DNA of 32,000 nt. Source: Longivirga aurantiaca. GTDB taxonomy: Bacteria > Actinomycetota > Actinomycetes > S36-B12 > CAIYMF01. The position numbers were made by a program, and so were the translations under genes. The DNA is taken from contig NZ_JBHSTI010000008.1 of NCBI RefSeq assembly GCF_042660085.1, forward strand, positions 1,117,836 through 1,149,835, read 5' to 3'. Positions within the stretch are counted from its first letter, which is position 1. Each line of letters begins with the position of its first letter. Shown here in pieces: positions 1,586-32,000 of this stretch. The notes under the pieces were generated by a model. That model worked only from the letters and a program-made list of their open reading frames with translations. It had not been told where the DNA came from and searched no databases.

Positions 1586-1771
1586 GAGGCGCGTAGGTGG
1601 GTGGCGGATCCGTCGCAGGGCGCACGCTGGCTACCCGGGTAACCAGCGAGGCGCGTAGGTGGGTGGCGGATCCGTCGCAGGGCGCACGCTGGCTACCGGG
1701 GTAACCAGCGAGGCTCGTGGGTGAGTGCGGAATCTGTCGCAGAGCGCACGCTGGTTACCCGGGTTGGCGGG
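1586..1771 (+). repeat. three tandem 62-bp units of the GTTACCCGGGTAAC-core REP-like family
   Basis: Units 1586-1647 and 1648-1709 are near identical (CTACCCGGGTAACC vs CTACCGGGGTAACC). The third unit, 1710-1771, has the canonical module GAGTGCGGAATCTGTCGCAGAGCGCACGCTGGTTACCCGGGTT. The array lies between the USP start and the stop of the 1782..2723 gene. Confidence 0.9.
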
Positions 1772-1781
1772 TGCGAGGCGG

Positions 1782-2723
1782 CTACTCCGCGGCCAGGGTG
1801 CGCAGCTCGGCGATGGCCTTGCCCGCAGTCCTGAGGTAGTACCACGGCCAGTCCTGGATGCGGTCGCCGAGCGCGTCGATCTGGTGTGCGCCCTCGGCCT
1901 TGTTCTCGCTCACGTACGACGTCATCGCGAAGGTGTTGCGGGCGATGACTCCGGCGGCGTCGTCGGGGAAGCCGGGCAGCCACGAGGAGGCCGCGGCGTC
2001 AGCGAGCTCCTGTGCGACGGCCGCCGAGGAGATGTAGCCGCGCGGAGGCTTGCCGCTGACCCAGTACTCGAGGTGCGCGATGCCGATCAGCTCGTTGAGC
2101 GGCGACGGCGCGGAGGTGTCGCGGTGCTCCCGGGCGAACGCGAACATCTGCTCGTGGCTGCCGCTCCACTTCTCGCAGATGCCCTGCAGCGCCTGCTCGT
2201 GCAGGGCGAGGAACGACTGCCCGCCCGCCGCGACACCGCGGTCGAACCGGGCCCTTACCTCCGACGGGCCGTACTGCAGACCACGGCCGAGGAGTACGGC
2301 GGTGCACCACGACAGGGGAGCGCTCGCCCACGGGGTGAGCGCAGGCTGCAGCACCCGCTCGGCCGCCTCGAGGTAGCCGAAGAACCCCTCGAACTTGCGG
2401 GCGCCGACCGTCTCGGCCATCCCGTGGCCGCGGATCGCCCAGCCGGCCTGCACGAGCGCCTGCGCGTAGACGGTCGAGGCGAACGGGTCGTCCTGCTTCG
2501 TGTCGTACCACGCCTGGATGCGGTCGAGGTCGGCCGCGTCGTTCATCCGCGTCAGCGCCGCGTGGATGTCGTCGAGGCTCTCGGCACGGGCGGCGATGCC
2601 CTCGAACTGCGCGATCTCGCCCGCCTTGCCCGCCGCCAGGGCCTCGGTGACCGTCGCGATCCCGAGGTCGGGGCTCTCCACGAACCTGGTGCTCGGCTTG
2701 GACGTGCGCGAGAACAGACCCAC
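1782..2723 (-). CDS. hypothetical alpha-helical protein (DUF4034-like from motif memory, unverified)
   Basis: 313-aa ORF with a GTG start preceded by AAGGGGGAAG (revcomp of 2726-2735) and strong GC3 bias. The segment EKWSGSHEQMFAFAREH and the W-rich helical stretches recall DUF4034-type proteins. Confidence 0.75.
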   Translation of the reverse strand: MGLFSRTSKPSTRFVESPDLGIATVTEALAAGKAGEIAQFEGIAARAESLDDIHAALTRMNDAADLDRIQAWYDTKQDDPFASTVYAQALVQAGWAIRGHGMAETVGARKFEGFFGYLEAAERVLQPALTPWASAPLSWCTAVLLGRGLQYGPSEVRARFDRGVAAGGQSFLALHEQALQGICEKWSGSHEQMFAFAREHRDTSAPSPLNELIGIAHLEYWVSGKPPRGYISSAAVAQELADAAASSWLPGFPDDAAGVIARNTFAMTSYVSENKAEGAHQIDALGDRIQDWPWYYLRTAGKAIAELRTLAAE

Positions 2724-2780
2724 GACTTCCCCCTTCGATGTGCGGCCGATCGTAGGGCGCGGGCTCCGCTCAGGCGTGGT

Positions 2781-2903
2781 TCGGCGTACGTCGGGTGTCG
2801 AGCGTGTTCCGGGGCGCGCGCTCGGCGTACCCGGGTAACGGGAAAGGGGCGTAGCTGAGTGCCGAATCCGTCCCAGAGCGCACGCTGGTTACCCGGGTAA
2901 CGG
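2781..2903 (+). repeat. REP-like repeats: one diverged-subfamily unit plus one canonical unit
   Basis: 2781-2841 reads TCGGCGTACGTCGGGTGTCGAGCGTGTTCCGGGGCGCGCGCTCGGCGTACCCGGGTAACGG. 2854-2903 reads GCTGAGTGCCGAATCCGTCCCAGAGCGCACGCTGGTTACCCGGGTAACGG. The TACCCGGGTA cores at 2828 and 2890 are 62 bp apart. Confidence 0.85.
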
Positions 2904-2907
2904 CCGA

Positions 2908-29595: not shown

Positions 29596-29707
29596 GATGA
29601 GTGCGGATCCCGTCGTAGAAGGCACGCTGGTTACCCGGGTAACGGGCGGCGGCGCTGGCTGGGTGCGGGTTCCGTCGCCGGGCGAACGCTGGTTACCCGG
29701 GTAACGG
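29596..29707 (+). repeat. two tandem REP-like units (62-bp period) in a divergent promoter gap
   Basis: 29596-29645 reads GATGAGTGCGGATCCCGTCGTAGAAGGCACGCTGGTTACCCGGGTAACGG. 29658-29707 reads GCTGGGTGCGGGTTCCGTCGCCGGGCGAACGCTGGTTACCCGGGTAACGG. The spacer is GCGGCGGCGCTG. Confidence 0.9.
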
Positions 29708-29806
29708 CGGGTGACGTGGGTCGCGTTGACGCAGGGCTTCGGGAGCGGCGTACGGCGGGGTCTGGCAGGGTCGGCCTAGGCCGTACGGCGACCGGAGGGG
29801 CAGGCG

Positions 29807-31900
29807 ATGTCGGAGAGTCTCTACATCACCTCGGCCTCGCCGCGCGCGGGCAAGGCGGTCGCGGCGCTCGGTGTGCTCGAGCTGCTCGCGCGCCGCGTCG
29901 ACCGCATCGGGCTGTTCCGCCCGCTGATCGACGGCGACGGCACGCGCGACGCGCTGGTCGAGCTGCTCGTCGACCGCTACGACCTCGACGTCGACCTCGC
30001 GACCGCGTGCCCCATGACGTACGCCGATGCCGCGCGGCACCTGGAGTCGGGCCACCAGGACGCGGTCGTGACGGCGGCGGTCGAGGCGTTCACGTCTCTT
30101 CGACAGAAGTACGACTTCGTGCTGGTGCTCGGCACCGACTACACCGGGCCGGCGGCGTCGACCGAGCTCGACCTCAACGCGACCCTCGCGGCCAACCTCG
30201 GCACGCCGGTGCTGTCGGTCGTCTCGGCGTGGGACAGCGAGCCGGACGACGTACCCGCGGCGGTCGCGCAGGCGCGGCACGTGCTCGCCGACCACGGCTG
30301 CACGCTCGTCGGCACGCTCGTGAACCGCGCGGATCCGGTGCGCCGCGACGAGATCGAGGCGCTGCTGGTCGCCTCGGCACCGGACGAGCCGGTGTGGGTG
30401 CTGCCCGACCTGCCCGTGCTGTCGGCGTTGACCGTCGACGAGGTCGCCACCGCCCTCGACGGCACGGTGCTCGCGGGGGAGCCCGCGGATCTGCAGCGCG
30501 AGGTCGACCGCTTCGTCGCCGGGTCTGCGCACGTGCCGAACGTGCTGCCGCTGCTCGACACCGGCGTGCTGCTCGTCGCGGCCGGCGACCGTGCGGATCT
30601 CGCCGTCGCGATGGCGGCGTTCGCCTCGAGCCCCGACCTGCCCACGCCCGCGGGCCTCGTCGTCACCCTCGGCCTGATCCCGGATCCGCTGACGCAGCAG
30701 CTGCTGCGCGCGTCGCGGCTGCCGGTGGTGGCGGTCGAGCTCGACACGTACGCCGCTCTGCACGAGATCGAGGGCCTGCGCGGCGAGATCCGCGCGGGGT
30801 CGCGGCGCAAGATCGCCGCGGCGCTGGGGGAGTTCTCGGCGCATGTCGACACCGAGCGCCTCGCGTCGCGGATCCGGTTCAGCACGTCGGAGACCGTGAC
30901 GCCGTTGATGTTCGCGGTCGACGTGCTCGAGCGGGCGCGCGCGGACCGCAAGCGCATCGTCCTGCCGGAGGGCACCGACGAGCGGATCCTGCGCGCTGCG
31001 GAGGAGCTGCTGCACGGGCGCGTGGTCGACCTCGTGCTGCTCGGCGACCCGGGAGTGATCGCCGCGAAGGCGGCCGCGATCGGCGTCGACATCTCCGCTG
31101 CCGAGATCATCGATCCCGCGAGGTCGCCGTTGCTTCCGTCGTTGGCCGCGCGGTACGCCGAGCTGCGCGCCCACAAGGGCGTGACGCTCGGGCGGGCGCA
31201 CGACCGTGTGATCGACCCGTCGTACTTCGGGACGCTGCTGGTGGAGACCGGTCGCGTCGACGGCATGGTGTCGGGCGCGACGCACACCACCGCCGAGACG
31301 ATCCGGCCGGCGCTCGAGGTGATCAAGACCGTGCCGGGCGTCTCACTGGTGTCGTCGACGTTCCTCATGTGCCTGCCCGACCGCGTGCTTGCCTTCGCCG
31401 ACTGCGCGGTCAACGTGGATCCGTCGGCGGAGCAGCTGGCCGACATCGCGTCGTCCACCGCCGACACGGCCGCGGCGTTCGGCATCGTGCCGCGGGTGGC
31501 GATGGTGTCGTACTCCACCGGGGAGTCCGGGTCCGGTATCGACGTCGAGAAGGTGCGGCTGGCGACGTCGCTCCTGGTCGAGCGCCGCCCGGATCTCCCC
31601 GTGGCCGGCCCGATCCAGTACGACGCCGCCGTGGATCCCGCAGTCGGTGCGTCGAAGATGCCGGGCAACGACGTGGCGGGGCACGCGACCGTGCTGGTGT
31701 TCCCCGACCTCAACACGGGCAACGCGACGTACAAGGCGGTGCAGCGCTCGGCCGAGGCCGTGGCGGTCGGGCCGGTGCTGCAGGGCCTGCGGCGTCCGGT
31801 GAACGACCTCTCGCGCGGCTGCACCGTGCCCGACATCGTCAACACCGTCGCCATCACCGCCATCCAGGCCCAGTCGGTCGCGCCCGCCTCACGCGGGTGA
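29807..31900 (+). CDS. pta: phosphate acetyltransferase, long form (N-terminal DRTGG/AAA-like region + PTA domain)
   Basis: 697-aa ORF with GGAGGGG 6 nt upstream of the ATG. The N-terminus is MSESLYITSASPRAGKAVAALGVLELLARR. PTA-domain motifs include RIVLPEGTDERILRAA, DGMVSGATHTTAETIRPALEVIKT, VFPDLNTGNATYKAVQR and VGPVLQGLRRPVNDLSRG. Confidence 0.95.
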   Translation: MSESLYITSASPRAGKAVAALGVLELLARRVDRIGLFRPLIDGDGTRDALVELLVDRYDLDVDLATACPMTYADAARHLESGHQDAVVTAAVEAFTSLRQKYDFVLVLGTDYTGPAASTELDLNATLAANLGTPVLSVVSAWDSEPDDVPAAVAQARHVLADHGCTLVGTLVNRADPVRRDEIEALLVASAPDEPVWVLPDLPVLSALTVDEVATALDGTVLAGEPADLQREVDRFVAGSAHVPNVLPLLDTGVLLVAAGDRADLAVAMAAFASSPDLPTPAGLVVTLGLIPDPLTQQLLRASRLPVVAVELDTYAALHEIEGLRGEIRAGSRRKIAAALGEFSAHVDTERLASRIRFSTSETVTPLMFAVDVLERARADRKRIVLPEGTDERILRAAEELLHGRVVDLVLLGDPGVIAAKAAAIGVDISAAEIIDPARSPLLPSLAARYAELRAHKGVTLGRAHDRVIDPSYFGTLLVETGRVDGMVSGATHTTAETIRPALEVIKTVPGVSLVSSTFLMCLPDRVLAFADCAVNVDPSAEQLADIASSTADTAAAFGIVPRVAMVSYSTGESGSGIDVEKVRLATSLLVERRPDLPVAGPIQYDAAVDPAVGASKMPGNDVAGHATVLVFPDLNTGNATYKAVQRSAEAVAVGPVLQGLRRPVNDLSRGCTVPDIVNTVAITAIQAQSVAPASRG

Positions 31901-31907
31901 CCTGTCG

Positions 31908-32000
31908 TACCTGGGTAACGAGCGTGCGGCAGAGCGCACCCTCGTTACCCAGGTAAGGGTGCTTCGGCTTACCCGGGTAACGAGCGTGCGGCAGAGCGCA
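31908..32000 (+). repeat. REP-like long hairpin just after pta, plus the start of a second unit cut by the window edge
   Basis: TACCTGGGTAACGAGCGTGCG (31908-31928), loop GCAGA, then GCGCACCCTCGTTACCCAGGTA (31934-31955): a 21-bp stem with one mismatch. It starts 8 nt after the pta stop and may act as a terminator or stabiliser. A second copy, CTTACCCGGGTAACGAGCGTGCGGCAGAGCGCA, begins at 31968. Confidence 0.85.

Follow-up and report, generated by a model that had tools for sequence, protein, structure and literature searches.

Repeat polarity in the window and across the genome

Why should every copy of an asymmetric repeat point the same way along a stretch of chromosome whose genes are read from both strands? 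The question is raised by 32,000 nucleotides of the draft genome of Longivirga aurantiaca (3.67 Mb, 72% G+C; here G000), which lie at G000:C8:1117836-1149835, C8 being a contig, and are called the window below; the closest relatives of this genome in the public collection are uncultured actinomycete metagenome-assembled genomes (MAGs). Between its genes stand arrays of a 62-nt unit, a lineage-specific intergenic repeat akin to repetitive extragenic palindromic (REP) elements and the bacterial interspersed mosaic elements (BIMEs). The original prediction, made from the window alone, ascribed their shared polarity to the replication strand. We find instead that the co-orientation is a property of one repeat-rich, rearrangement-prone neighbourhood beside a nuclease gene, with no demonstrated replichore rule, and with slightly more confidence than doubt we regard it as the product of local history, acting on a REP/BIME-like repeat that was amplified head-to-tail.

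A profile hidden Markov model (HMM) was made from the repeat copies and used with nhmmer on the window alone. The + strand units with readable polarity, 10 strong, 3 moderate and 2 weak, fall into ~7 loci. Full-length matches begin at 1590, 1652, 1714, 2848, 17969, 21536, 26287, 26349, 29588 and 29653 (E 1e-13 to 1e-19), and weaker ones at 17868 (1.5e-6), 17932 (partial, 3e-9), 31905 (1.3e-8), 19281 (7e-4) and 14520 (0.08). No reversed copy was detected on searching both strands of the window; the minus-strand matches are all short partials confined to model positions of at least 37, which represent the self-complementary TACCCGGGTA box of the + units read backwards. The profile HMM thereby confirmed that all polarity-readable repeats of the window lie the same way on the + strand. 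Among the individual copies that had been proposed, those at 18198 and, as a possible relic, at 11490 were not detected by the HMM; the one at 2781 is present as a partial unit (2812-2842, E 0.1), but its polarity is unreadable, and the one at 31908 was detected on the + strand as a near-palindromic short form (31905-32000), but with weak polarity.

The co-orientation of 15 copies out of 15, which had been judged very unlikely by chance, stands as a count, but the copies are not independent, since the units fall into ~7 loci, arrays are head-to-tail by construction and some are duplicates. Counted by locus, co-orientation is still above chance, with 7/7 loci in the window and 10/10 in the full cluster described below (p = 0.002), a region in which only 19 of 40 genes lie on the + strand. 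The gene calls bear out that the flanking genes lie on both strands: the USP gene, a 313-aa orphan and the PPOX-like, EamA/cNMP, aminotransferase, AbgT and M20 peptidase genes are on minus, and those for an RCC1 protein, an FG-GAP protein, EgtC, a 1507-aa orphan and pta are on plus. Four of the ~7 loci are antisense to their neighbours or divergent from them, and polarity within the window does not track transcription, as had been proposed. The co-orientation in the window is real and beyond chance.

GC skew was too noisy as a guide to the replichores, and was replaced by gene strand bias, a dif-like site and a polar motif. The origin, oriC, could not be placed on the window's contig, dnaA and dnaN being on small contigs. 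The gene strand bias switches at ~1.55-1.6 Mb on C8, and at this switch lies a single-copy dif-like 23-mer, CGATAATGAGCATTATGTAATGT (G000:C8:1572712-1572734), which is identical in G018 (G018:C3:716550) and differs by 2 bases in G007 (G007:C75), the two MAGs that share the repeat family. The octamer CGGGGGAG occurs 449:12 on the strand taken as leading (97% skew) and flips at dif. The 7-mer GGGGGAG, with counts of 383:24 to the left of dif, 5:250 to its right and 94:14 on contig C2, is 92-97% strand-skewed and flips exactly at the dif-like site (C8 around 1572723), GGGGGAG-type words reaching z = 20. The word is also polar in the examined pieces of G007 and G018 and in G043, a genome with a sister repeat family. 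In this lineage it is probably the equivalent of the FtsK-orienting polar sequences (KOPS) or architecture-imparting sequences (AIMS), and offers a clean replichore marker for this uncultured lineage, handy in fragmented MAGs. With dnaA at C1:1.300 Mb and dif at C3:0.717 Mb, the two arms of G018 are balanced (2.16 and 2.02 Mb). On this map the window lies on the left arm, ~425-455 kb from dif, and its + strand is the leading strand.

Two rounds of nhmmer over the whole genome yielded ~44 units in ~21 intergenic loci. Ten of the loci are packed into a cluster of ~50 kb (C8:1119-1170 kb), against an expectation of 0.29 (P ~1e-12); 7 are in the window and 3 just beyond it, and all 10 are on the + strand, that is, the leading strand. 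The other C8 loci are on + at 878 kb and 1036 kb, on minus at 1047.6 kb and 2143 kb, and on + at 2259 kb, C2 has two + loci, and the rest are on small contigs. With orthologous loci counted once, 17 of the 21 unique loci run with the leading strand. The direction of the proposed bias toward the replichore was borne out in this pooled count, but a replichore rule acting through single-stranded DNA at the fork was not: outside the cluster, 6 loci run with and 4 against the leading strand, so that orientation there shows no clear tie to the replichore and the excess comes wholly from the cluster.

The sister family of G043, with polarity judged by the GGGGGAG-type word, has 15 loci co-oriented with the leading strand and 5 opposing, of which a 15-kb cluster contributes 6 and 2, respectively. 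This cluster is syntenic with that of G000, since both hold the gene following pta and a DUF559 paralogue; apart from it, the dispersed G043 loci are not orthologous to those of the window genome. Pooling the G000 and G043 families gives 16:2 inside the two clusters and 13:7 (65%) outside. The ratio outside equals the ~63% to be expected of elements that simply follow genes, 62.7% of genes lying on the leading strand. Sense orientation is the main regularity there: 15 of the 20 pooled loci (75%) are in sense to the upstream gene, just past its stop codon (p = 0.04). At loci for which gene direction and replication direction make opposite predictions, neither predictor stands out (7 vs 6 loci).

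We therefore weighed a true replication-linked strand bias, in which copying or insertion through single-stranded fork DNA, or selection on one strand, would set the polarity and the exceptions would be later inversions or translocations. Besides the pooled counts for both families, such a bias would accommodate the co-orientation of all 5 replichore-assignable arrays between convergent genes and the reversal of array 2142985 on the other arm, and it has a precedent in the clustered tandem REP arrays of Pseudomonas fluorescens SBW25, which are uniform in orientation and mirrored on the two arms, forward on one and reverse on the other (Bertels & Rainey 2011, PMC3116915). The excess over the gene-driven expectation, borderline significant (p 0.04-0.06), also speaks for it. 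The ratios outside the clusters, however, match the gene expectation. The left arm has 13 + and 1 minus loci, and the right arm 1 of each, only two loci in all: array 2142985 is reversed but 2258965 is not, and the reversed one was copied as a segment from the array at 1036250, along with ~45 nt flanking it and a second hairpin element. Locus 1047596, in turn, is reversed although it lies 11 kb from that + array. These counts make a replication-linked origin of the polarity unlikely in our judgement.

The mechanisms that had been suggested for such a bias fared no better. In the IS200/IS605 elements (IS608, ISDra2), insertion into the lagging-strand template and the resulting replication-linked strand bias are established. 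The present repeats resemble them in bearing hairpins, and the pooled counts lean the same way, but the Y1 HUH transposase that defines them was not found, there is no clean flip at dif and the bias vanishes outside one cluster. A search for Y1 or REP-associated tyrosine transposases (RAYTs; PF01797) found no match in the three carrier genomes G000, G007 and G018, while control genomes responded; with completeness at 88-96%, absence is likely. The analogy with KOPS and Chi also failed, since the polar word of this genome, GGGGGAG, is missing from the repeat and no repeat 8-mer is enriched on the leading strand outside the repeats (z at most +2.7; the larger values are only negative, -3.6 and -5.0, and belong to the spacer flank). 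The case is a warning that a conspicuous local pattern may mislead: the fifteen co-oriented repeats resemble a replication signature, but the genome-wide map, anchored on dif and on a 97%-skewed polar word, points to a property of one neighbourhood.

Duplication, inheritance and gene gain around the arrays

Several loci of the window are copies of one another. Positions 2816-2971 and 17937-18092 are 88% identical (family D3), each with an array joined to the final ~25 codons of a PPOX-like gene; positions 14410-14557 and 18091-18238 are 93% identical, and here a relic unit accompanies the head of the gene. The source of both fragments is the intact PPOX-like gene of F420 type at 14129..14452 on the minus strand (TIGR03618, E 4e-6, below the curated cut-off), whose orthologues adjoin arrays in G007 and G018. 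Its displaced 3' tail, duplicated together with the adjoining array, is at 2908..2998 on the minus strand (family D4) and aligns with the intact gene over the last ~25 residues only; 4 nt from the stop of this fragment are a partial and one full unit (2812..2903, +; E 8e-19 for 2848-2903). On the other side of the intact gene, an array at 17868..18024 (+), which combines a diverged unit, a short near-palindromic form and a full unit (E 1.5e-6, 3e-9 and 1.3e-18), is followed by a PPOX pseudogene at 18029..18238 (minus), which by duplicate and alignment comparison has an internal deletion that leaves tail plus head. A weak, diverged relic unit upstream of the PPOX gene (14520..14574, +; E 0.08) lies inside the 148-nt duplicate 14410-14557/18091-18238, and another weak diverged unit, just past the EgtC stop (19281..19335, +; E 7e-4), is 95% identical to 14517-14553 (family D13).

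Comparison with the other species separates inherited from added parts. G007 has the compact order M20-AbgT-PPOX-array-USP, and the window has ~25 kb extra between USP and AbgT, at the junctions of which sit the modules of array plus PPOX tail. The arrays upstream of pta, downstream of it, between PPOX and USP and around the DUF559 gene have counterparts at the orthologous sites of G007 and/or G018, and are therefore inherited. In the window, the first of these sites is the divergent intergenic region between the M20 peptidase gene and pta, with two units at 29588..29707 (+, nhmmer), found at the same site upstream of pta in both G007 and G018. Downstream, near-palindromic short-form units begin 4 nt past the pta stop (31905..32000, +), in an array cut by the window end whose polarity is weak (29.6 bits on + vs 17.9 on minus); G018 carries a unit at the same site. 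The array next to USP (1590..1769, +) consists of three 62-nt units (E 1e-15 to 1e-16) and lies between the stop of the 313-aa orphan and the start of USP, antisense to both of these minus-strand genes; in G007 its orthologue is flanked by the PPOX and USP genes.

Two genes that G007 and G018 lack are framed by arrays. The 313-aa orphan (1782..2723, minus; called by coding score) is bracketed by two co-oriented arrays; it has no Pfam or NCBIfam match and no homologue in G007 or G018. The 1507-aa orphan (21754..26277, +), absent from the same two genomes, has co-oriented arrays on both sides, namely a single unit 11 nt past the stop of a + strand gene (21536..21596, +; E 2e-14) and two units that fill the space between convergent stops (26287..26408, +; E 7e-17 and 4e-19), 9 nt from that of the 1507-aa gene and 0 nt from that of AbgT. 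Along the stretch from pta to ApbE, too, gene content differs among the three species, with arrays at the junctions. These layouts count as evidence for a position of REP-like arrays at the junctions where genes were gained or lost.

A local history would produce the uniform polarity in several ways. Units of one array are co-oriented by construction, through head-to-tail amplification, and several loci are segmental duplicates of the array with the PPOX tail. Other arrays bracket lineage-specific inserted genes as direct repeats, which recombination at an array or duplication would leave whatever the direction of the cargo, and some arrays (the pta flanks, USP/PPOX, the DUF559 gene) have been passed on vertically at orthologous sites. 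Finally, repeats may have spread locally from the locus of the DUF559/Vsr-like nuclease, which the cluster adjoins and with which it shares its direction. The anatomy of the unit, the copy and replichore maps, the duplications, the orthology and the nuclease association are established by the data; both recombination-driven insertion and local spread from the nuclease locus are what we infer from these arrangements.

Several points weigh against this reading. An empty-site comparison, of locus 1047596 with G018, showed no clean insertion boundaries and no target duplication, and recombination-mediated insertion is read from the layout, not observed. The nearest relative lies inside the cluster for only 8 of the 17 cluster units, which lends mild support to local descent. 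The gene calls come from a home-made codon-usage caller, with names checked against Pfam/NCBIfam for part of the genes. Pooled co-orientation amounts to 29/38 (p = 0.055 against the gene bias of 0.63), and 7 of the 10 loci antisense to the upstream gene are co-oriented (p = 0.04), a result that depends on the clusters; orientation may thus have a weak or modest replication-linked component.

The framing of genes also invites comparison with integrons. If the arrays were cassette-like recombination sites, similar to attC, or portable homology for gene capture, they would be co-oriented regardless of cargo direction. As in attC arrays or clusters of attC sites lacking integrases (CALIN), co-oriented structured sites lie on both sides of single genes, whatever their direction, within a variable region: the 313-aa and 1507-aa orphans and the DUF559 gene each lie between direct arrays, the variable gene content from pta to ApbE has arrays at its junctions, and the duplicates of array plus gene tail resemble att-site scars. 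Unlike cassette sites, however, the repeats are also dispersed after housekeeping genes (smc-ftsY, a glycosyltransferase gene and dapF, pheA, uppS), and arrays close to each other can be inverted (1036250 on +, 1047596 on minus). No tyrosine recombinase is present near the cluster, with no match to the integrase family PF00589 within ~200 kb and the nearest ones at C8:897 kb and 1383 kb, and the unit lacks the R/L box architecture of attC, no GTTRRRY boxes being visible by eye in the unit alignment. We consider such a role highly improbable, and prefer local history for the brackets as well.

As for the content of the extra DNA (window 1782-26400), it holds genes for a 1149-aa RCC1-repeat protein (3231-6680) and a 1571-aa FG-GAP protein (6677-11392), a LuxR/AAA regulator (11487-13916), the EamA-cNMP gene, a lone EgtC gene (18441-19277) and the 1507-aa orphan. 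Outside the window, G007 and G018 share a site at which two conserved small genes enclose a reversed array; G000 has ~4 kb of other DNA there (C8:1053670-1057653) and no array, a further coincidence of arrays with gain/loss junctions.

A DUF559/Vsr-like nuclease gene bracketed by repeats

At the right edge of the cluster stands a gene (C8:1168579-1169523) whose product matches Pfam DUF559 above the cut-off, and MTES_1575 and AbiEi_4 below threshold. Arrays stand on both sides of this gene in G000 and G007, as the sister hairpins do around its homologue in G043, and the elements of all three clusters share the direction of the nuclease gene. G000 has three DUF559 paralogues (C8:1168579, C8:1587826 and C8:113681), each flanked by a different dispersed hairpin family. 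A DUF559 paralogue also lies ~15 kb from the dif-like site in both G000 and G018.

The association extends through the genus, where it is statistically strong. Among 19 genomes, the two flanks share a repeat of at least 44 bits at 16 of 23 DUF559 genes vs 1 of 300 control genes (Fisher p 9e-21). At 8 loci the core CGTCG-YRG-AGCGC recurs in the flanking repeats on variable stems, and 23 of its 24 occurrences are in sense to the gene; the stems vary between genomes. The DUF559 protein has no sequence relative in the PDB and no NCBIfam model, and we found no paper linking DUF559 to such repeats.

This arrangement resembles that of RAYTs, for which there is one nuclease gene per REP type, flanked by repeats of that type (bioRxiv 10.1101/279083); the bracketing is alike but the enzyme fold is different, as the bracketed gene here encodes a DUF559/Vsr-like nuclease and no Y1/RAYT was found in any carrier genome. 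The nuclease may mobilise the repeats. A fuller version of this idea, which we hold tentatively and expect to fail more readily than to hold, is a RAYT-independent 'REPtron' made up of the hairpin repeats with the CGTCG-YRG-AGCGC core in this actinobacterial genus: the DUF559/Vsr-like nuclease, with its winged-helix N-terminal domain, would be the cognate enzyme, each paralogue would be bracketed by its own repeat type in sense, and preferential, directional spread to nearby sites would give rise to co-oriented clusters like that of the window. To our knowledge, no dedicated enzyme is associated with CGTC-tagged REPs; a REPtron, if true, would give them a candidate. The link to the nuclease makes the question of who mobilises REP-like repeats where RAYTs are lacking directly testable.

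Anatomy of the unit and its placement at gene ends

The consensus of the 62-nt unit is roughly GTAGCTGAGTGGCGAATCCGTCGCAGAGCGCACGCTGGTTACCCGGGTAAC plus ~12 variable bases, and units follow one another head-to-tail, 1-4 to an array, at an exact period of 62 nt. By sequence comparison, the unit is a worn-down long hairpin, the left arm and loop of which hold the conserved core CGTCG-YRG-AGCGC, and the right arm has been remodelled into the self-complementary TTACCCGGGTAA box. A hairpin origin is indicated by the short palindromic form at 17905-17960 and by the sister element of G043, of which 25 copies were found with a sequence-only covariance model. The G043 element is an intact 49-nt hairpin (AACCTGGGTG.CGATTC / loop CGTCGCAGAGCGG / GAATCG.CACCCAGGTT), a type that G000 lacks. 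The left arm and loop of this hairpin correspond to the asymmetric module of the window unit, whose polarity is therefore the remnant of a decayed hairpin. The full family was found by the covariance model only in G000, G007 and G018. An exact-pattern scan of 185,579 species genomes likewise placed it in only two other MAGs, so that a larger data set for the exact family does not exist.

The arrays keep close to gene ends. At 15 of 20 loci (9 of 11 outside the cluster) no more than 33 nt separate their 5' end from a stop codon on the same strand, their 3' ends lie 0-12 nt from convergent stop codons, and the GTAG of the unit often provides or follows the stop codon. Housekeeping genes that they follow include smc (before ftsY), a glycosyltransferase gene (before dapF), pheA, uppS and pta. 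Placement of this kind is known for GTAG- and CGTC-tagged REPs, which lie near the 3' ends of genes (within 20 bp), mostly between unidirectional or convergent gene pairs, with GTAG able to supply the stop codon (Di Nocera et al. 2013, PMC3733652). As short, palindrome-derived, multi-copy and lineage-specific intergenic repeats, the ~44 units share with REPs, BIMEs and REPINs (REP doublets forming hairpins) the position within ~20 nt of 3' gene ends, the conserved GTAG/CGTC motifs with GTAG as a stop source, a nuclease gene bracketed by its own repeat type, and the clustered, uniform tandem arrays seen in SBW25. They differ in that the window family is arranged head-to-tail with a 62-nt period rather than in inverted doublets, the hairpin is half decayed and there are only ~21 loci. 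Mycobacterial interspersed repetitive units (MIRUs) are also actinobacterial tandem intergenic units, of 40-100 bp, which stand between co-directional genes and start at the upstream stop codon, but the present unit is palindrome-derived, its arrays also occur between convergent genes and its length of 62 nt is not a multiple of three, so that it cannot preserve the small overlapping reading frames of MIRU type.

Such placement raises the possibility that the arrays act at the transcript level, as 3'-untranslated-region terminators or mRNA-stabilising hairpins in sense behind the upstream gene, in which case the antisense copies of the window would be decaying bystanders. The distances to stop codons and the use of GTAG at the stop are consistent with this, and in G043 sense orientation to the upstream gene holds for 15 of 19 loci and for 4 of the 5 replication-opposing elements, each behind a lagging-strand gene. 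REPs, moreover, are described as mostly transcribed 3' elements (PMC3733652). The arrays give more stable folds than shuffled versions do (z -2.5 to -7.9), but so do both strands, because any two boxes are mutually complementary; array 17868..18024, for example, scores -7.9 in sense and -6.5 in antisense, and the difference in energy between sense and antisense stems from G-U pairs on the G-rich strand. No fold of the asymmetric module showed covariation, nor did the best single-sequence fold exceed shuffles in this respect, and RNAalifold gave no consensus structure for the repeat. In the window there was no Rfam 15 match at the gathering score. The evidence for RNA structure in the repeat is thus weak. 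The hairpins also lack a following T-run, and the antisense placement between PPOX and USP has been kept in two species. A transcript-level function as the cause of the polarity therefore seems rather doubtful to us, and we retain local history as the preferred explanation.

A second hairpin element, with outer arms GAGTTACTGCCC and GGGCAGTAACTC, directly follows the arrays at C8:1036430-1036540 and C8:2142860-2142980. The inner stems differ between the two copies with pairing kept, which gives the whole the appearance of a BIME-like mosaic of two repeat families.

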